Assembly (NCBI GenBank): GCA_027592025.1 | Contig: JAQCIQ010000009.1 | Span: 14,376-78,375 of the forward strand | DNA length: 64,000 nt | Direction: 5' to 3' | Source of the DNA: Bacteroidota bacterium | GTDB lineage: Bacteria > Bacteroidota > Bacteroidia > Flavobacteriales > Flavobacteriaceae | Shown: piece after piece, positions 3,086 through 18,234 of the stretch | Position numbering within the stretch: position 1 is the stretch's first letter | Layout of the letters: each line of letters starts with the position of its first letter | Program-made: the position numbers and the translations under genes | Notes under the pieces: generated by a model | What the model was told of the DNA's origin: nothing | The model's database searches: none | What the model saw: only the letters and a program-made list of their open reading frames with translations

Positions 3086-3158
3086 GACCTGGTAGCTCAG
3101 CTGGTAGAGCAATACACTTTTAATGTATGGGTCCTGGGTTCGAATCCCAGCCAGGTCA
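3086..3158 (+). tRNA. tRNA-Lys (anticodon UUU)
   Basis: Hand-folded cloverleaf: acceptor GACCTGG/CCAGGTC, D arm GCTCAGCTGGTAGAGC, anticodon stem ATACA/TGTAT with loop CTTTTAA, T arm CTGGGTTCGAATCCCAG, discriminator A. No encoded CCA. Confidence 0.9.
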
Positions 3159-3200: not shown

Positions 3201-3285
3201 GCGCACGTGGCGGAATTGGTAGACGCGTTAGGTTGAGGGCCTAATGACCGCTTAGGTCGTGGAAGTTCGAGTCTTCTCGTGCGCA
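3201..3285 (+). tRNA. tRNA-Leu (anticodon GAG), class II with long variable arm
   Basis: Acceptor GCGCACG/CGTGCGC, D arm GCGGAATTGGTAGACGC, anticodon stem TTAGG/CCTAA with loop TTGAGGG, long variable arm, T arm GGAAGTTCGAGTCTTCT. Confidence 0.9.
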
Positions 3286-3350: not shown

Positions 3351-3596
3351 ATGAACAATGTTAAAAATCAATTTAGCATTAAAGATTTAAAAAACATCAG
3401 CGGCATTAAAGCTCACAACAATAGAATCTGCGAAAAAAGGCACCAATTACTCCATCCCGAAGGCAGAAATTGCAATAAACGCTTCCACATTCTTTCCAAT
3501 TTGCAAAAATTATTGAACGCGATGCATTACAATAAAGAAATGCGTATCTCAAAAATTGCCTGTATGCCAGATGTAGAATTAAACAAACTTATTTAG
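3351..3596 (+). CDS. Truncated MerR-family HTH stub (N-terminal DNA-binding domain only), possibly a decaying relic
   Basis: MNNVKNQFSIKDLKNISGIKAHNNRICEKRHQLLHPEG...LQKLLN resembles the N-terminus of the MerR regulators that precede flavobacterial crt clusters. It stops after 81 codons. The track ORF start at 3279 overlaps tRNA-Leu and is rejected. Confidence 0.45.
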   Translation: MNNVKNQFSIKDLKNISGIKAHNNRICEKRHQLLHPEGRNCNKRFHILSNLQKLLNAMHYNKEMRISKIACMPDVELNKLI

Positions 3597-3651
3597 AAAA
3601 AATTAAAATGTTTGAAAGTATATAGCAACTCATACAAACCATTTAACAATT

Positions 3652-5112
3652 ATGTCAAAAAAACAAACTATAATAATAGGATCAGGTTTTTCGGCTCTGG
3701 CGGCATCCTCATACCTCGCGAAATCTGGGCATCAGGTCACCGTTTTGGAGAAAAACGCCCAAATTGGAGGCCGAGCCCGTCAGCTCAAAAGAGACGGATT
3801 CACTTTTGACATTGGACCAACTTGGTATTGGATGCCCGATGTTTTTGAACGTTTCTTCGCAGACTTTGGCAAACTACCAAGTGACTATTACAGTTTGGAA
3901 AAATTGAGCCCGGCCTATAGTGTATATTTTGGTCAAAACGATAGAATCACTATTGGAGACACCTTGGATAAGATCTGTGAAGCCTTCGAAGCAGAAGAAC
4001 CAGGCAGTTCTGTCGTGTTAAGAAAATTTATCGATAAAGCGAAAAAAAACTATGACATAGCTATAAAGGACTTAGTATACCGTCCAGGTTTGTCGCCTAT
4101 TGAATTGGTCACTCCTCAAACAGCTGTCAGAGTTGGACAGTTTTTTAGTACCATCCAAAAAGATGTGCGAAGAGCATTTAAAAATGAAAGGCTGGCCCTT
4201 ATTCTAGAATTTCCAGTTCTTTTTTTAGGCGCCAAGGCTTCTAAAACTCCTGGGTTTTATTCTTTCATGAACTATGCCGATTTTGGTATTGGAACTTTTC
4301 ATCCCAAAAAAGGAATGTATGAAGTCGTCAAAGGCATGGCCTCTTTGGCAGAAGAACTTGGCGTGACCATTCAAACAGGGATGAATGTGGAAGAAATTCT
4401 TTTAGAGAATGGCAAAGCCATTGGCGTTATGGCCAATGGGCAAAAACACTTGGCCGATGTAATTCTGAGCGGCGCTGATTACCACCACAGTGAGACATTA
4501 TTGCCAGAACGTTTCAGGCAATATTCGGAGTCCTATTGGGAAAAAAAGACATTCGCACCTTCGTCCCTATTGTTCTACATCGGATTCGATAAAAAATTGA
4601 AGAACGTAGACCACCACACTCTATTTTTTGATGTAGATTTTGAAAAGCACGCTGCGACCATCTACGATGATGCCAAATGGCCAGAAGAGCCTCTGTTCTA
4701 TGCCAGTTTTCCAAGTATTACTGACGATAACGCAGCACCTCAAGGACAGGAGGCTGGCATTTTTTTGATTCCCATCGCTCCAGGAATCGAGGACACACCC
4801 GAAATCAGAGCAGTATTTTTGGATAAAATCCTTACCCGATTTGAGTCTCTTACTCAACAAAATGTGAAAAATAGCATTATATTTGCTGAATCGTTCTGTG
4901 TTAATGATTTTGTCAAGGATTACAATTCCTACAAAGGAAATGCATACGGTATGGCTAACACTCTGCTTCAAACGGCTTTTTTACGGCCTAAGTTACAGAG
5001 TAAAAAAGTAAAAAGTTTATTCTTTACTGGCCAACTGAGCGTCCCTGGTCCTGGCGTCCCTCCTTCCTTAATATCAGGAAAATTGGTCGCCGACTTGATC
5101 AACAAAGCCTAG
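3652..5112 (+). CDS. crtI: Phytoene desaturase
   Basis: N-terminal FAD fold IIIGSGFSALAASSYLAKSGHQVTVLEKN..GGR, 486 aa, directly followed by crtB. Confidence 0.9.
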   Translation: MSKKQTIIIGSGFSALAASSYLAKSGHQVTVLEKNAQIGGRARQLKRDGFTFDIGPTWYWMPDVFERFFADFGKLPSDYYSLEKLSPAYSVYFGQNDRITIGDTLDKICEAFEAEEPGSSVVLRKFIDKAKKNYDIAIKDLVYRPGLSPIELVTPQTAVRVGQFFSTIQKDVRRAFKNERLALILEFPVLFLGAKASKTPGFYSFMNYADFGIGTFHPKKGMYEVVKGMASLAEELGVTIQTGMNVEEILLENGKAIGVMANGQKHLADVILSGADYHHSETLLPERFRQYSESYWEKKTFAPSSLLFYIGFDKKLKNVDHHTLFFDVDFEKHAATIYDDAKWPEEPLFYASFPSITDDNAAPQGQEAGIFLIPIAPGIEDTPEIRAVFLDKILTRFESLTQQNVKNSIIFAESFCVNDFVKDYNSYKGNAYGMANTLLQTAFLRPKLQSKKVKSLFFTGQLSVPGPGVPPSLISGKLVADLINKA

Positions 5113-5159: not shown

Positions 5160-5999
5160 ATGAAACAAGTATTTGACGACATTTCGTACCGTTGTAATCG
5201 AATGGTTACAACAACATACAGCACTTCCTTTGGCATGGCTACGAAAATGTTGGCCTCTTCCATTAGGCAGGACATCTATAACATCTATGGATTTGTCCGT
5301 TTGGCAGATGAGATTGTCGATTCGTTTCACGACTTCGACAAAAAGACTCTTCTTGACCGATTTGAAGTCAGTCTATATGAAGCCTTTGATGAACACATCA
5401 GTGTTAACCCAATTTTAAACGCTTTTCAACACACTTATCACAAGTGTAATATCGATCGTCAGTTTGTCGAAGCCTTCATGCACAGCATGAGGTTGGACTT
5501 GACCAAATCACAATACCTGACTTTGGAAGAATATCAAAACTATATTTACGGTTCTGCTGACGTGGTTGGTTTGATGTGCCTAAAGGTATTTGTGAAAGGT
5601 GACCAAAAGCAATTTGACGCTCTAAAGAATTCGGCCATGTCATTGGGATCGGCCTTTCAAAAAGTCAACTTTTTGAGAGACCTCAAGGCCGATTATGAAG
5701 GACTCAACAGAACTTATTTCCCTGGGACAGATTTGAGTAGGCTGGATGAAGAATCTAAGAATGCGATTATTCTTGATATTGAAAGCGATTTTGCCAAAGG
5801 TTTGGCAGGAATTCGTCAATTGCCGATGGAAGCCAGATTTGGCGTATTCATGGCTTACCGCTATTATTCAAAGCTCCTGCAAAAACTTAAAAAGACCCCT
5901 GCTACGGACATCAAAAACGCCCGGATCAGAGTGTCTAATCACAAAAAAATTATCCTCCTAACAAGGAGTTATGTCAAGTATCAACTGAATCTCATTTAA
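5160..5999 (+). CDS. crtB: Phytoene synthase
   Basis: Squalene/phytoene synthase layout with Asp-rich segments (YGFVRLADEIVD, YGSADVVG..., FLRDLKAD), 279 aa. Confidence 0.9.
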   Translation: MKQVFDDISYRCNRMVTTTYSTSFGMATKMLASSIRQDIYNIYGFVRLADEIVDSFHDFDKKTLLDRFEVSLYEAFDEHISVNPILNAFQHTYHKCNIDRQFVEAFMHSMRLDLTKSQYLTLEEYQNYIYGSADVVGLMCLKVFVKGDQKQFDALKNSAMSLGSAFQKVNFLRDLKADYEGLNRTYFPGTDLSRLDEESKNAIILDIESDFAKGLAGIRQLPMEARFGVFMAYRYYSKLLQKLKKTPATDIKNARIRVSNHKKIILLTRSYVKYQLNLI

Positions 6000-6010
6000 A
6001 CCTACTCTTT

Positions 6011-6460
6011 ATGCAAACAGCTCTTTGGATCGGCATATACTTAGCTACATTTTTTTCTATGGAATTCATGGCCTGGTTTACCCACAAATATGTTATGCAT
6101 GGATTTCTTTGGCATATTCATGCGGATCATCACAAAAAGGACCACGACAGTTGGTTTGAGCGGAATGACTTGTTTTTTATCTTCTACGCTGTGGTCAGTA
6201 TGGGCTGCATTATACTTTGGAGCGAGTATGGGGTTTGGTTTGCTTTACCGATAGGAATAGGTATTTTTAGCTACGGTTTAGCCTATTTCATGGTTCATGA
6301 TATTTTTATACATCAGCGTTTCAAAATATTCAAAAAGGCCGATAATATATACGCAAAAGGCATTCGCAGAGCTCATAAAATTCATCACAAACATATAGGC
6401 AAGAAAGAAGGGGAAAATTTCGGGATGCTCATTGTACCATTCAAATATTTTAAAAATTAA
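6011..6460 (+). CDS. crtZ: Beta-carotene 3-hydroxylase (fatty-acid-hydroxylase superfamily)
   Basis: His boxes HKYVMH, HADHHK, HDIFIHQR and HKIHHKH in a ~150-aa membrane protein, in crt cluster context. Confidence 0.85.
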   Translation: MQTALWIGIYLATFFSMEFMAWFTHKYVMHGFLWHIHADHHKKDHDSWFERNDLFFIFYAVVSMGCIILWSEYGVWFALPIGIGIFSYGLAYFMVHDIFIHQRFKIFKKADNIYAKGIRRAHKIHHKHIGKKEGENFGMLIVPFKYFKN

Positions 6461-6464
6461 ATCA

Positions 6465-7166
6465 ATGCAGTATTTATATCTACTGCTCAATTTAGGGGCA
6501 ATTTTGGTTCCACTCATCTTCAGCTTTCATCCGAAATTAAAATTCTATAAAATGTGGCCTGCTCTAGGTCTAAGTATAATTTTTAATATGGTCCTTTTTA
6601 TTCCTTGGGATCACATTTTTACAGTCAATGGATTTTGGGGATTTGACAGTAACTATCTGAGTGGCTATAGTTTTTTAGAACTTCCTTTAGAAGAATGGCT
6701 CTTTTTTATTTGCATTCCCTATGCCTGTGTGTTCATGCATCATGCCATTTTGGTTTTTCACCGAAAAAGACGTTTGCCTGTCAGGTTAACCCATGTTGTT
6801 AGTGGACTATTGATTTTAGCGTTGGCAATCTCTATTGTCAAGTATCACGACCGCTGGTACACTGTGATCAATTTCGCTTATGGGATTCTATTACTGAGCA
6901 TAATAGTTTGGAAAAGGAATGATTTGCTTCAACATTACTACCTCACCTTTATATTCATGCTTATTCCATTTTTCATTATTAATGGCATATTGACAGGCAC
7001 AGGGATTGAAGATCCTATTGTTTGGTATAATAATTTTGAAAACATTGGTCTTAGACTAGGAACTATCCCAATTGAAGACACCATATACGCCTTTACCCTT
7101 ATATTAGGGAATCTGGCCATGACAGATTACTTCCACCAAAAATTGGGAAAATTGACCGATTATTGA
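6465..7166 (+). CDS. Lycopene cyclase domain protein (fused CrtYc/CrtYd-type)
   Basis: Polytopic membrane protein with two copies of the PxE(E/D) motif (LPLEEWLFF and [10 protein letters not shown]). The start is taken at the ATG at 6465 ([11 protein letters not shown]), 4 nt after the crtZ stop. Confidence 0.75.
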
Positions 7167-14378: not shown

Positions 14379-15854
14379 CTATCGTCGCGAGTAATTCGGA
14401 GCTTCTTTGGTAATGGTGACATTGTGAGGATGGCTTTCAATTATACCAGAATTGGTGATTTTGACAAACCGTCCCTTTTCTTGTAAGGTAGATACATCTT
14501 TTGCGCCGCAATATCCCATACTCGCTCTCAGCCCACCTATGAACTGGTGCACCGTTTCAATCAAATCGCCTTTATAAGGCACTCTTCCAACAATTCCTTC
14601 TGGAACAAGCTTTCTGAGATCATCTTCCATGTCCTGAAAATATCGGTCTTTACTGCCTTCCTTCATGGCTTCGACGCTTCCCATGCCTCTGTAGGATTTA
14701 AAGCGTCTGCCTTCAAAAATAATGGTCTCTCCTGGCGATTCTTTTGTTCCAGCCAACATGCTGCCTAGCATGACACTGTCGGCTCCTGCTGCAATGGCTT
14801 TTGGAATATCGCCAGTGTATCGAATTCCTCCATCGGCTATTACAGGAACACCTGTGCCTTTGAGTGCTTCGGCAACTTCCATGATTGCGGACAGTTGAGG
14901 GAATCCAACTCCAGCTACAATTCTGGTGGTACAAATTGAACCTGGTCCTATTCCAACCTTTACAGCGTCAGCTCCAGCATCAGCCAAGTATTTTGCAGCT
15001 TCACCTGTGGCAATATTTCCTACCACAACATCAATGTGAGGAAATTCCGACTTAATGGCCTTTAACATTTTTACCACTCCTGCTGAATGTCCGTGGGCAG
15101 TGTCGATTACTAATGCATCTACACCAGCAGCTACTAGAGCGGAAACTCGATCCATACCATCTAAAGACACGCCTACCGCTGCCGCAACTCTAAGTCTGCC
15201 AAAGTGATCCTTATTGGCAATTGGCTTCTGAGTCAATTTTGTGATGTCTCTAAAGGTAATCAGCCCAACTAAAACATTATTCCCGTCAACTACAGGAAGC
15301 TTTTCAATTTTATTTTGCTGCAGAATGCCTTCCGCATCTTTGAGAGAAGTACCTGCACTAACTGTTACCAGATTTTTACTTGTCATCACCTCAGTGATCG
15401 GACGGTTATCATTGCGCTCAAATCGCAAATCTCGGTTTGTAACAATACCCTTAAGTTTACCTTGGTCATCGACAACTGGAATGCCTCCAATGCTAAATTC
15501 TGCCATATTTTGCTTGGCATCTCGAACAACTGAATCCATGGGCAAAGTGACAGGATCCATGATCATTCCACTCTCCGCACGCTTCACTTTTCGAACTTTT
15601 AAGGCTTGCTCCTCAATGCTCATGTTTTTGTGAAGGACGCCAATCCCACCTTCCTGAGCCATGGCAATAGCCATTTTGCTTTCTGTAACCGTATCCATTG
15701 CCGCAGAAACGATAGGGATATTCAGTGAAATATTTCTCGTTAGCTTAGACTTTACATCGACGTCACGGGGCAGAACTTCGGAATAGTTTGGTACCAAAAG
15801 GACGTCGTCGTAAGTCAACCCTTCGCCTAAAATTTTATTTGAATGTGAAGTCAT
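14379..15854 (-). CDS. guaB: IMP dehydrogenase
   Basis: Catalytic loop [11 protein letters not shown] and an inserted CBS pair, 491 aa. Confidence 0.95.
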
Positions 15855-15930
15855 TGCAATTAGATTTAATTGCCTGCGAATTTACGACATTTCGTTGGTT
15901 TGGCTGCTATACTAATAAACAAACTGCTTC

Positions 15931-16434
15931 TTACTTTTCGATTTTATCACTAAAACCCATTTCTATGAGAATCAGAATAACTGAAGTGGCATAAGTAATT
16001 GTCATTAAAAACCCAGAAAAAGCAACAATGTAGCTGAACCAATTTACCCCAAGCCACATAACAAAGAGTCCTCCGAAGGTCACAGCTACTGAGACAAAGG
16101 GCTCAATAACCAAGAACAATTTGAATTTATTAGGAAGACCTGTCAAACTAACTAAGAGTCCCACAATACCAAAAACTAAGGCTAAAGACATGGTGTGGGT
16201 GTGAATGATGGTAAGCATTTCGCGCTCGCTTTTTTTAAATTTCATTTCCATTACCGCTCCATCTTCGTTCTCATTACCTAGATATTGAGACTCAATACCG
16301 CTGGGAGTAGCATTAGTAGTATTGGAAACAAACCCCAAGCCAGTAAAAAACCCAATGCTAAGAATTATCAGAAAAGACACCAAAAGAGCCTTTTGAACAG
16401 TTGGCAGTGATTTCAGTTTGTTTTCTGTCCTCAT
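15931..16434 (-). CDS. Small integral membrane protein (~4 TM), family unknown
   Basis: Hydrophobic spans LLVSFLIILSIGFFTGLGFV, SLALVFGIVGLLVSL, FVSVAVTFGGLFVMWLG and IVAFSGFLMTITYATSVILILI. The start overlaps the upstream stop as ATGA. Confidence 0.6.
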   Translation of the reverse strand: MRTENKLKSLPTVQKALLVSFLIILSIGFFTGLGFVSNTTNATPSGIESQYLGNENEDGAVMEMKFKKSEREMLTIIHTHTMSLALVFGIVGLLVSLTGLPNKFKLFLVIEPFVSVAVTFGGLFVMWLGVNWFSYIVAFSGFLMTITYATSVILILIEMGFSDKIEK

Positions 16435-16961
16435 AAAATATCATTTAGTTTTAGCACATTGACGGCTTTTAAAACCAGGTTAACCATTTCTGTCATGGAC
16501 CTCACCGAAATGGTCGCTCCCGAAATGGCCGCAATATTTTTTCCAACCACAAATTCACTGTCTGCTGCGCTTCCATTAAACTGCTTGAGCCAACGCTTGC
16601 TGGCAATTTCTCCCCCATAATCCTCTCTGTACTGCAATACTTTGACAGATTTGACCATGAGGTTGGTGTCAAATAAAATTGCAAAATCGTACACGTCAGT
16701 CTTGCTTGGTCCTTGGCCTACATAAACGAAACCAATTGGTTTTGAGGAAGATTCAATTTTGTACAAATTAGAGAGCCGAAACGCATTTGGAAGATTGACT
16801 CTAGTCGCATCCGGACCTTTAACCTCCTCTATTTCATAAGTTTGAACTGAAAAATTGTCTAAAACAAGGGGCCTTAATTTCTTTTCCAAATTAGACGGAG
16901 GTGCCGTTACACCCAACAATAATAAGCTAGAGAATATGGCCAGATGCTGTGTTCTTCTCAT
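16431..16961 (-). CDS. Secreted FMN-binding domain protein
   Basis: Signal peptide MRRTQHLAIFSSLLLLGVTA. VLQYREDYGGEIASKRWLKQFNG...NIAAISGATISVRSM matches the FMN_bind pattern of NqrC/RnfG. The ATG at 16961 is preferred over the track's TTG at 16976. Confidence 0.7.
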   Translation of the reverse strand: MRRTQHLAIFSSLLLLGVTAPPSNLEKKLRPLVLDNFSVQTYEIEEVKGPDATRVNLPNAFRLSNLYKIESSSKPIGFVYVGQGPSKTDVYDFAILFDTNLMVKSVKVLQYREDYGGEIASKRWLKQFNGSAADSEFVVGKNIAAISGATISVRSMTEMVNLVLKAVNVLKLNDIL

Positions 16962-16966
16962 GTTTT

Positions 16967-18127
16967 TCAATACCAAAATCCTACTCCCATATTGAACTGT
17001 CCATAACTGTCATTCGCCGCATTCCAATGGCGCTGGTAATCTGTTTTGAAAACAACACCCTGAGTCAAAGCCAAACCAAAGCCTGAAGTTACCGAATTGC
17101 GGTGATAAGCACCGTTTTTCAGTTGATTGATTACTGCAGCATGCGTATCCACATTCTCATATCTTGAGAATAGCGTTAAACTTCGGTTATTTCCAAAATC
17201 TAATATCTTGAAACTGCCTTCCAAATACCACCCATACATTTTGGAACCCAAATCACTGTCGTATAAATCGTTATAACTTGAGGTATTGGACAATCGGGCA
17301 TGAATGTACTGTCCTCGTGCAGCGAATGAACCATTTGAATACCGAGCGTCTAATCCCACCATGTTCACTCCTACATTCTCCACATCTAGATCTGTCTTTT
17401 CTAAGTCAGATTGTGTTTGCCCAACATAATATGACAACCCCACTCTCAGATTACGCAAGCCATAATAATCGAGTTTGACAGAAAAATTCGGACTGTTGAT
17501 AATGGATTTGCCACCTTTCTGACGACCGTTTCGAAGTCCATTTTCGCCATTCAAAACTTTGCCTTCATTCTCTGAGGCAAAACCATTAACAATATAGGCC
17601 TGATACCTCATACTGAGATTGTCGAATCTTCCCGCAATTCCTGCTCCTATTTCCCGCCAAGTGGTCGGGACCAAATAGGTGTCACCGATAGGACGACTAA
17701 CGCCATTGAAAGTAGTTGGCTCGTGATATTCGTTAATAATTCCCATTGGGACGAGCAGCAGTCCAGCGCGCAAATTAAGGGCGTCTGATACATTGTAATT
17801 TACAAATGCCTGCTCTACATACAGTTCTGTAGTATGTTCCATTTCAATTTCGGTAATGAACTGTACCCTTTCATCAAATCGATATCCTAACAACAAGACC
17901 ATCCTGTGAACATCTAACAAGCCATTCTGATCTTGAGGTTTCAAATATTCGACTTCCCCGTACATTCCGATTGTTAAAGAATTTTGAGCTGATGCAGTAA
18001 GCAAAGTTTGAGCAGCGTTATTTTGAACATACGGAATAGAATCGCTAGCAATACGAACAATTTGGGCAAACCCGCATGTTGGCAGTAACAACATTAGAAA
18101 GCTCGTACAAATAAGCTTAAAATTCAT
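16967..18127 (-). CDS. Outer-membrane beta-barrel, porin-like
   Basis: Signal peptide MNFKLICTSFLMLLLPTCGFAQ, alternating-hydrophobic strands throughout and C-terminal GVGFWY. The ATG at 18127 is used because the track's TTG at 18166 lies inside the promoter box. Confidence 0.6.
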   Translation of the reverse strand: MNFKLICTSFLMLLLPTCGFAQIVRIASDSIPYVQNNAAQTLLTASAQNSLTIGMYGEVEYLKPQDQNGLLDVHRMVLLLGYRFDERVQFITEIEMEHTTELYVEQAFVNYNVSDALNLRAGLLLVPMGIINEYHEPTTFNGVSRPIGDTYLVPTTWREIGAGIAGRFDNLSMRYQAYIVNGFASENEGKVLNGENGLRNGRQKGGKSIINSPNFSVKLDYYGLRNLRVGLSYYVGQTQSDLEKTDLDVENVGVNMVGLDARYSNGSFAARGQYIHARLSNTSSYNDLYDSDLGSKMYGWYLEGSFKILDFGNNRSLTLFSRYENVDTHAAVINQLKNGAYHRNSVTSGFGLALTQGVVFKTDYQRHWNAANDSYGQFNMGVGFWY

Positions 18128-18163
18128 AAATAAGCACTTAAAATTGGTTGAATTAAAGAGGCC

Positions 18164-18171
18164 CAAAAATA
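18164..18171 (-). promoter_or_regulatory. Candidate -7 promoter box for the porin / FMN-binding / 4-TM operon
   Basis: Minus-strand TATTTTTG, 36 nt upstream of the ATG at 18127. Very AT-rich DNA lies further upstream, to 18234. Confidence 0.45.
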
Positions 18172-18234
18172 GTGCAGATAATTATACCATCCAACTTATT
18201 TAGAATTAATTTAAATAAAAATAAGAAAAAATTA

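Follow-up and report, generated by a model that had tools for sequence, protein, structure and literature searches.

What would an outer membrane barrel, a secreted flavoprotein, and a small four-helix membrane protein do together, and on which substrate would they act? This question is raised by an operon in a 64,000-nt stretch of contig JAQCIQ010000009.1 (assembly GCA_027592025.1) from a Bacteroidota bacterium of the Flavobacteriaceae; the whole stretch is referred to as the window, and coordinates given without a locus handle are positions in it. Taken together, our analysis suggests that the operon most likely encodes an undescribed, flavin-based iron-acquisition system of marine Flavobacteriaceae, and we consider it an even bet that its three parts form an envelope module, repressed by Fur, with which iron is acquired reductively. 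A sequence-only reading of the same DNA had described three same-strand genes with a 5-nt gap between genes 1 and 2 (16962 to 16966) and an ATGA overlap between genes 2 and 3 (16431 to 16434) behind a TATTTTTG box, and all of this was confirmed in the sequence of the minus strand. It had also proposed that an outer membrane channel, a periplasmic flavoprotein, and an inner membrane protein act together on an unspecified extracytoplasmic substrate. Their acting together is supported by an FMN_bind match, by synteny, and by the family of gene 3, and the extracytoplasmic site of action is upheld; the substrate, however, can be narrowed, since conserved Fur boxes and iron-related variable neighbors point to iron.

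The first line of evidence is found upstream of gene 1. Alignment of the gene 1 upstream regions of 56 loci revealed a palindrome, TTATTTARA-N5-TCTAAATAA, which in the window begins 91 nt before the ATG and whose core (18198 to 18216) has no mismatch to ATTTARA-N5-TCTAAAT. In Riemerella anatipestifer, the predicted Fur box, ATTTAGAATTATTCTAAAT, is identical to this 19-bp core, and purified Fur of that organism shifted promoter fragments carrying the predicted box in electrophoretic mobility shift assays (EMSA) (PMC5609570). Compared with the box of Riemerella hmuR, ATTTAAAATTATTCTAAAT, the window sequence, ATTTAAATTAATTCTAAAT, differs in the spacer alone. Of 55 distinct orthologous upstream regions, 52 have a box with at most one mismatch (chance expectation at this threshold, 0.24 sites per window), and 36 have two boxes at fixed positions, ~−105 and ~−35 from the ATG, that bracket the promoter. 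Considering the match and the conservation of the box, the operon is predicted to be, most likely, under Fur control. The TATTTTTG box lies ~37 nt before the ATG of gene 1, fits the Bacteroidetes −7 element TAnnTTTG, and together with an upstream TTG forms a putative Bacteroidetes-type promoter; the arrangement TTTG...TAnnTTTG(C) recurs in the 56 regions aligned. In the operon leader, no riboswitch or other Rfam element was found. In loci of the L001 type (Maribacter, Arenibacter, and others), a gap of ~100 nt between the porin and flavoprotein genes holds a third, weaker palindrome (~3429, two mismatches), which suggests that genes 2 and 3 have an internal promoter of their own under Fur control.

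The second line of evidence is conservation of the trio. Loci from Flavobacteriaceae were collected by a scan with the gene 3 alignment of that family, and distant loci were taken from contigs encoding gene 3 homologs. Synteny, which the sequence-only reading had named as a check, is widespread: in 60 of 80 Flavobacteriaceae genomes, the trio is flanked by an HMGL-like gene and guaB, and it is orthologous in distant lineages. Within the family, synteny could be explained by shared ancestry, and the distant members of the gene 3 family are the decisive evidence for a unit. Two of their loci with 47% GC (L010 and L016) encode a barrel, an FMN_bind protein, and a member of Aq_1264_TM, the family of gene 3; in two others with 66 to 70% GC (L007 and L015), the order is barrel, FMN_bind-ApbE fusion, and Aq_1264_TM; and in a further one with 67% GC (L099), the three genes are followed by apbE. 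The proteins of these loci are homologous to those of the window, with E values of 1e-21 to 9e-62 for the barrels and 1e-14 to 1e-19 for the flavoproteins. With each of the three genes orthologous and adjacent across lineages of 33 to 70% GC, we take the trio to be a functionally linked unit.

The genes that vary around this unit also point to iron. A ferritin gene is inserted beside the operon in four loci (L041, L052, L059, and L091). Two loci, that of Mesonia (L089) and L098, have in place of the porin gene a DUF6607 gene and a divergently oriented gene for a TonB-dependent receptor; a Fur-like box lies in the intergenic region between the divergent genes. The secreted DUF6607 protein has ~300 amino acids and a conserved CGC near its N terminus, and its gene (L089, 2572 to 3468; L098, 4952 to 5869) is located directly upstream of the FMN_bind and Aq_1264_TM genes. 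At L098, genes for HmuY, DUF6686, and a TonB receptor adjoin; at L010, PepSY_TM and TonB receptor genes are found downstream of the operon; and at L074, an HTTM protein and a TonB receptor are encoded upstream.

Gene 2 would provide the flavin. Its product had been taken for an FMN_bind-type protein, and indeed it matches PF04205 (FMN_bind) over residues 95 to 164 above the gathering score (33.6 versus 22 bits; E = 6.3e-8); the rnfG model TIGR01947 aligns over the full length, with a sub-threshold score (25.5 versus a cutoff of 102). The ApbE flavinylation motif is [S/T]GA[S/T] (PMC8238504). In gene 2, the motif ends in T150, the predicted acceptor threonine, which, like G148 and A149, is invariant in 11 orthologs. 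Moreover, gene 2 is orthologous to the FMN_bind half of the FMN_bind-ApbE fusions, and these fusions make it very likely that proteins of the gene 2 family are flavinylated. The N terminus, judged by eye, consists of MRRTQH and a LAIFSSLLLLGV segment, and orthologs show clear AxA-type sites. A tblastn search of the 64-kb window found no ApbE, Rnf or Nqr subunit, PepSY_TM protein, TonB receptor, or ferritin; the absence of Rnf/Nqr and ApbE, the usual partners, had been noted before and holds.

Gene 1 had been read as an outer membrane barrel from its end, GVGFWY, and this end was confirmed. Its signal peptide, as judged by eye, ends in FAQ. The AlphaFold model of the protein has 16 strands (predicted local distance difference test score [pLDDT] of 69), and in Foldseek, it matches the trimeric porins OmpM1, OmpT, OprP, and OmpC with E values of 7e-14 to 1e-11; OprP (2o4v) is found at 5.5e-12 and OprO at 3.6e-11, and general porins score equally well. 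The local Pfam gave no match at an E value of ≤1 except a spurious one to DUF3102, and some homologs with 52 to 56% identity carry PF07396 (Porin_O_P) or PF13609. Residues E93, E95, E97, E105, N132, H135, R145-P146, R199, and R202 are invariant among barrels that are 24 to 54% identical to gene 1. E93, E95, and E97 should face the same side, because they occupy alternate positions on a strand, and this side is presumably the lumen. The most conserved stretch of the protein is the loop of residues 127 to 156, which is modeled with low confidence. An acidic strand and an N-E-x-H loop suggest a channel for cations or metal, such as weakly complexed cationic iron, rather than for anions. We also considered a conduit of the MtrCAB type, with the flavoprotein sheathed in the porin, and set it aside, because a 16-stranded barrel should be too narrow to enclose a folded FMN_bind domain.

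The third component, gene 3, had been left without an assignable family. This view stands in part: the protein is uncharacterized and falls into no characterized family unrelated to redox, but Pfam does cover its homologs with PF27139 (Aq_1264_TM). The local Pfam copy lacks this model, and membership was read from the precomputed annotation of homologs; gene 3 itself has no match in the local Pfam or NCBIfam. All 120 gene 3 homologs among the matches listed carry PF27139 (E values of 1e-89 to 9e-47), from 90% identity down. At an E value of ≤0.001, there are 1439 homologous proteins; the family consists of small proteins only and is represented by 353 sequences at 50% identity. In a collection of species-representative genomes, gene 3 has confirmed relatives at no fewer than 536 places, and we conclude that the operon is widespread.

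The AlphaFold model of gene 3 (pLDDT of 94) has four transmembrane (TM) helices (residues 12 to 40, 70 to 96, 102 to 127, and 133 to 160) and a short extra helix in the first periplasmic loop, and the H-T-H-T cluster at the start of TM2, described earlier together with four spans, is found as I-H-T-H-T. In 34 representatives that are 24 to 46% identical to the window protein, only H78 and H80 are invariant besides the initiator methionine, and G53 is nearly so. According to the positive-inside rule, the N terminus should be cytoplasmic, which would place the H-x-H pair at the periplasmic end of TM2. There, H78 and H80 may bind the head group of a quinol, or they may ligate heme or a metal at the interface with another subunit of an oligomer or with a partner. 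The known flavinylation-partner families (PF12801, PF01794, PF03929/PF16357, PF02683, NQR2_RnfD_RnfE, and DUF4405) are absent among the 25 most-matched of 35 families obtained with 34 diverse members at an E value of ≤10, and the window protein has no match to them either. Cytochrome b561 (PF01292) matched 1 of these 34 members (P0366) below threshold (20.6 versus 30.1 bits); membership in this family was rejected, the match being weak and restricted to a single member, and the two invariant histidines of gene 3 lie on one helix, compared to four on separate helices in cytochrome b561. Affinities to VKOR and DUF2871, weak matches in single members, were likewise judged insufficient.

Closer inspection of the family revealed a subgroup of 159 amino acids that is found apart from iron genes and adjoins redox and flavin genes. 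In an Armatimonadota metagenome-assembled genome (L014), genes for MenA and a polyprenyl synthase precede a member of this subgroup, and an Rnf/Nqr-like operon lies next to it. Another one heads a cluster (L097) with an EetB/ECF-T-type flavin exporter, which is defined as PF07456 (PMC9973259), a flavin adenine dinucleotide (FAD) synthetase, ApbE, and an FMN_bind protein like gene 2. Furthermore, P0388 (L100) and a relative with 57% identity (L101) have a conserved CXXCH motif (NCTSCH and NCTECH) in the periplasmic loop. This variant, of 264 amino acids, has a longer periplasmic loop (L100, 5944 to 6795; L101, ~2035 to 2815) and weak matches to cytochrome c and Haem_bd. No FMN_bind or porin gene was found among the flanking genes at L100 and L101; the 412-aa gene upstream at L100, tried as a retained porin, is unrelated. 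A gene for a bifunctional riboflavin kinase/FAD synthetase is convergent to the variant. An interchange of flavins and cytochromes is reported for flavinylated systems (PMC8238504), and the CXXCH variant echoes it. The context of the 159-aa subgroup, its adjacent exporter, and the CXXCH variant favor electron transfer by gene 3 over transport.

We propose the following sequence of events. When iron is scarce, Fur would leave the palindrome abutting the −33 element and the operon would be transcribed. Weakly complexed iron would enter via the gene 1 porin or, in some genomes, via a TonB receptor. The gene 2 protein would be exported, receive its flavin covalently on T150 from an ApbE whose gene lies elsewhere in the genome, and act as a periplasmic carrier with one flavin that reduces Fe(III) species. 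Gene 3 would be its membrane redox partner and pass electrons from menaquinol, possibly via a histidine-ligated cofactor, to the flavin of gene 2. The Fe(II) formed would then be imported by a transporter encoded elsewhere, for example, FeoB. In this scheme, we infer that iron is the substrate and that electrons run from quinol as the donor in the direction given; the role of the H-x-H pair and the selectivity of the pore are likewise inferred. It is tempting to go further and to postulate a siderophore-independent route of reductive iron uptake in marine Flavobacteriaceae and scattered phyla, with a glutamate-lined, iron-regulated porin that lets in unchelated or weakly chelated iron, a menaquinol-driven flavoprotein that reduces it in the periplasm, and Aq_1264_TM as a minimal four-helix quinol:flavoprotein oxidoreductase built on one H-x-H; in this full form, we regard the proposal as tentative and, on balance, doubtful.

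Several observations weigh against reductive iron acquisition by this module. The three genes do not encode an Fe(II) importer. Gene 3 has no recognizable cofactor or quinone motif, and its two invariant histidines occupy positions i and i+2 of a single helix, so that a monomer cannot use both as ligands of the same heme; no solved relatives were found by Foldseek against the PDB (best E value of 1.5, generic helical bundles) or with a PDB sequence profile. The model of gene 1 is of medium confidence and its conserved loops are poorly modeled. The Fur consensus comes from Riemerella, a member of another family in which EMSA was done on whole promoter fragments, and may not be that of the host; the distant loci outside the Bacteroidetes yielded no Fur boxes. 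Finally, in about 11 of the 80 Flavobacteriaceae genomes (Flagellimonas/Muricauda; L024, L028, L035, L036, L042, L053, L063, L074, L081, L083, and L094, at ~3900 to 4500), the locus lacks genes 1 and 2, and gene 3 is intact behind its own Fur box between the HMGL-like gene and guaB; at L081 and L083, it is divergent from a Fur-boxed TonB receptor of 740 amino acids. Gene 3 therefore has a role for which no adjacent flavoprotein is required. The sequence-only reading had seen an inner membrane anchor in gene 3; it is indeed a membrane protein, but its retention with a Fur box at these loci suggests more than an anchor.

This retention, sometimes beside a TonB receptor, would also be expected if gene 3 were a permease for Fe(II) or another metal, a reading that we consider unlikely. 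Here, H78, H80, and the acidic loop would capture the metal, a polar stripe (S83, E111, S115, T119, and S140) would conduct it inward, and the electrons of the flavin would come from a partner encoded elsewhere. Such a function would give the module the inner membrane transporter that it otherwise lacks, and it is consistent with the conserved and acidic periplasmic loop (Y-x-G-N-E-x-D-E) and with the H-x-H at the periplasmic face. However, E111 and the remaining polar TM residues vary beyond the Flavobacteriaceae, where only H-x-H and G53 are kept. Moreover, the 159-aa subgroup adjoins genes for quinone biosynthesis and for flavin export or flavinylation and has no iron genes near, and the variant with the CXXCH loop points to electron transfer.

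The same CXXCH variant could be read in yet another way. Under iron starvation, flavodoxin replaces ferredoxin and, by analogy, the flavin carrier and its membrane partner could replace an iron-rich (cytochrome or Fe-S) route to another periplasmic acceptor, with the porin admitting a substrate other than iron. Fur control fits such sparing as well as uptake, the variant of gene 3 resembles a swap of this kind, and L016 adjoins genes for AhpC, AhpF, and catalase; flavin/cytochrome interchange is documented for flavinylated systems (PMC8238504). Nevertheless, the outer membrane component is swapped for TonB-dependent receptors, the neighbors (ferritin, HmuY, and PepSY_TM) are genes of iron and heme acquisition, and there is no terminal oxidoreductase in the conserved gene set. 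Iron sparing is in our view distinctly less probable than a permease.

Could the iron be that of heme? The flavoprotein might reduce hemin or aid the release of iron from heme after uptake by an HmuR-type receptor or the porin. At L098, the DUF6607-FMN_bind-Aq_1264_TM genes are divergent from those for HmuY, DUF6686, and the TonB receptor, and in Flagellimonas, DUF6686 is encoded behind a Fur box beside gene 3. However, HmuY is linked at this one locus only, most carriers are free-living and marine, and a small porin with a narrow charged constriction is a poor fit for heme, so that a heme-directed function is improbable. Very improbable, finally, is a flavin (FAD/FMN) exporter or ApbE helper that would supply gene 2 with its cofactor and transfer no electrons: gene 3 is tightly associated with ApbE fusions and genes, and the delivery of FAD to ApbE is poorly defined in most Gram-negative bacteria (PMC9973259), but the EetB/ECF-T-type exporter beside Aq_1264_TM at L097, to which gene 3 is then not redundant, argues against an exporter, gene 3 persists without gene 2 at the locus in Flagellimonas, and a four-helix protein without a conserved polar core is unlikely to be a flavin carrier. 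Reductive iron acquisition remains the reading that we prefer, and the features on which it is built are compiled in Table 1.

Table 1. Features of the operon and its promoter region in the window
Feature	Position	Strand	Remarks
Gene 1 (porin-type outer membrane barrel)	16967..18127 (from ATG)	−	386 aa; C terminus ...MGVGFWY
Gene 2 (RnfG-like FMN_bind protein, putatively secreted or anchored)	16431..16961	−	176 aa
Gene 3 (4-TM inner membrane protein, PF27139 Aq_1264_TM)	15931..16434	−	167 aa
E-I-E-M-E-H (E93, E95, E97, H98), one barrel strand of gene 1	17834..17851	−	Translation checked
N-E-Y-H-E-P, long loop after strand 5 of gene 1, L3-like constriction loop	17717..17734	−	N132 and H135 invariant
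S-G-A-T (residues 147 to 150 of gene 2), predicted ApbE flavinylation site	16512..16523	−	Motif; T150 acceptor
H78-T79-H80, periplasmic end of TM2 of gene 3	16195..16203	−	Invariant histidines; I-H-T-H-T is residues 77 to 81
Fur box, 23-bp palindrome TTATTTAAATTAATTCTAAATAA	18196..18218	−	Predicted site; abuts −33-like TTG
Putative Bacteroidetes-type promoter	18164..18194	−	TTG 18192-18194, 20-nt spacer, TATTTTTG 18164-18171; read from sequence

Some observations on the surroundings of the operon are added here. Downstream of gene 3, on the same strand and separated by 76 nt (15855 to 15930), lies guaB (IMPDH; 14379 to 15854). A terminator scan found no terminator-like hairpin in this interval, and transcripts of the iron-regulated operon could extend into guaB; in the Flagellimonas loci, a Fur box is also found just upstream of guaB. 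A DUF6686 protein of 116 to 122 amino acids recurs near gene 3 (L024, 4506 to 4856, minus strand; L098, 3149 to 3517). In Flagellimonas, the Fur box lies between the start of its gene and guaB, and at L098, the gene is located between those for HmuY and the TonB receptor; DUF6686 is a candidate member of the iron regulon. At L016 (1231 to 5704), the trio adjoins genes for AhpC, an AhpF-like protein, and catalase and an unannotated open reading frame of 167 amino acids, judged by eye to be ankyrin-like; the proximity of these oxidative-stress genes may be a coincidence or reflect a link to redox stress. Elsewhere in the window, a Fur-box-like site with one mismatch (ATTTTAATTTTTTCTAAAT, 3591 to 3609) precedes a carotenoid cluster by ~40 nt. 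This cluster encodes a phytoene desaturase-type Amino_oxidase (3652 to 5112), a phytoene synthase (5160 to 5999), a hydroxylase (6011 to 6460), and a lycopene cyclase (6432 to 7166). The site could be due to chance or to iron-linked control of pigment synthesis. Two plus-strand tRNA genes (3086 to 3158 and 3201 to 3285) lie just upstream of the cluster.

What would such a system mean for its hosts? In waters poor in iron, much algal organic matter is consumed by Flavobacteriaceae and, to our knowledge, siderophore-free iron uptake by heterotrophic marine bacteria is poorly understood; the operon is a concrete candidate for a reductive route of iron uptake. It also bears on the field of extracytoplasmic flavinylation, in which 6230 genomes have flavinylation components and no characterized system, and five newly described apparatuses cover 3635 of them (PMC8238504). 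Flavinylated systems have already been tied to Fur-regulated iron reduction via other membrane partners (PMC8238504), and the partners described are NapH-, MsrQ-, PepSY-, DsbD-, and NqrB/RnfD-like proteins and DUF4405 (PMC8238504; PMC11334425). These two surveys contain neither a PF27139 membrane partner nor a porin-containing module, and the field would gain both a membrane partner family and a porin from outside them. In the literature searched, we found no mention of Aq_1264, PF27139, DUF6607, or DUF6686, and nothing relevant on FMN-binding proteins in connection with porins, iron, or Flavobacteria. If the full form of our proposal is true, Aq_1264_TM would add a class of new structure to the membrane partners of ApbE-flavinylated proteins. 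A minimal 4-TM protein with only two invariant histidines would also be attractive for studying electron transfer from the membrane to a periplasmic flavin.

Gene 2 resembles RnfG and NqrC in its putative N-terminal anchor or signal followed by an FMN_bind domain with the SGAT threonine; it differs in having a YRE-x-(Y/H)-GG-E motif in place of ETPGLGG, and the window encodes no RnfA/D/E, NqrB/D/E, or NqrF, as judged by tblastn. With OprP and OprO (PF07396), gene 1 shares the 16-stranded barrel, the long constriction loop, and the aromatic C terminus. However, OprP has an arginine ladder, according to the title of its entry, whereas the invariant residues of gene 1 that are candidates for facing the lumen are acidic or histidine (E93/E95/E97, E105, and H135), and gene 1, unlike OprP and OprO, is controlled by a predicted Fur box and is co-operonic with a flavoprotein.

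The operon as a whole comes close to the PepSY-like/DUF2271/ApbE (and MsrQ-like) clusters, for which a part in assimilatory iron reduction has been suggested (Meheust et al. 2021, PMC8238504), and to the FoxB-type PepSY_TM siderophore reductases. They combine an ApbE-flavinylated extracytoplasmic protein with a dedicated inner membrane partner, as is predicted here, and further traits in common are Fur regulation, in our case predicted, TonB receptors as neighbors, and a proposed reduction of Fe(III) in the periplasm. The differences lie in the components: gene 3 has four TM helices and a single H-x-H, in contrast to the di-heme PepSY_TM and MsrQ proteins with four axial histidines; gene 2 is an RnfG-like FMN_bind protein instead of a DUF2271 protein; and the porin is a conserved member of the window operon, unlike in the PepSY-like/DUF2271/ApbE clusters.

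A second comparison is offered by the extracellular electron transfer locus of Listeria monocytogenes (Ndh2, DmkA/DmkB, EetA/EetB, FmnA/FmnB, and PplA), in which a dedicated quinone supplies the electrons and extracellular Fe(III) is reduced by an FMN_bind protein whose flavin is attached by an ApbE homolog. Its PplA carries two FMN_bind domains. The likeness extends to the distant Aq_1264_TM members that adjoin genes for MenA, a polyprenyl synthase, and an EetB/ECF-T-like protein. Listeria, however, is Gram positive and has no outer membrane or porin and, as far as we know, no Aq_1264_TM protein, whereas the window operon has no genes for NDH-2, quinone synthesis, or a flavin exporter. In sum, the principle of a flavinylated protein served by a membrane partner is familiar; the membrane component that we propose for it here, Aq_1264_TM, is new and uncharacterized, and it is encoded in one operon with a dedicated porin under predicted Fur control.

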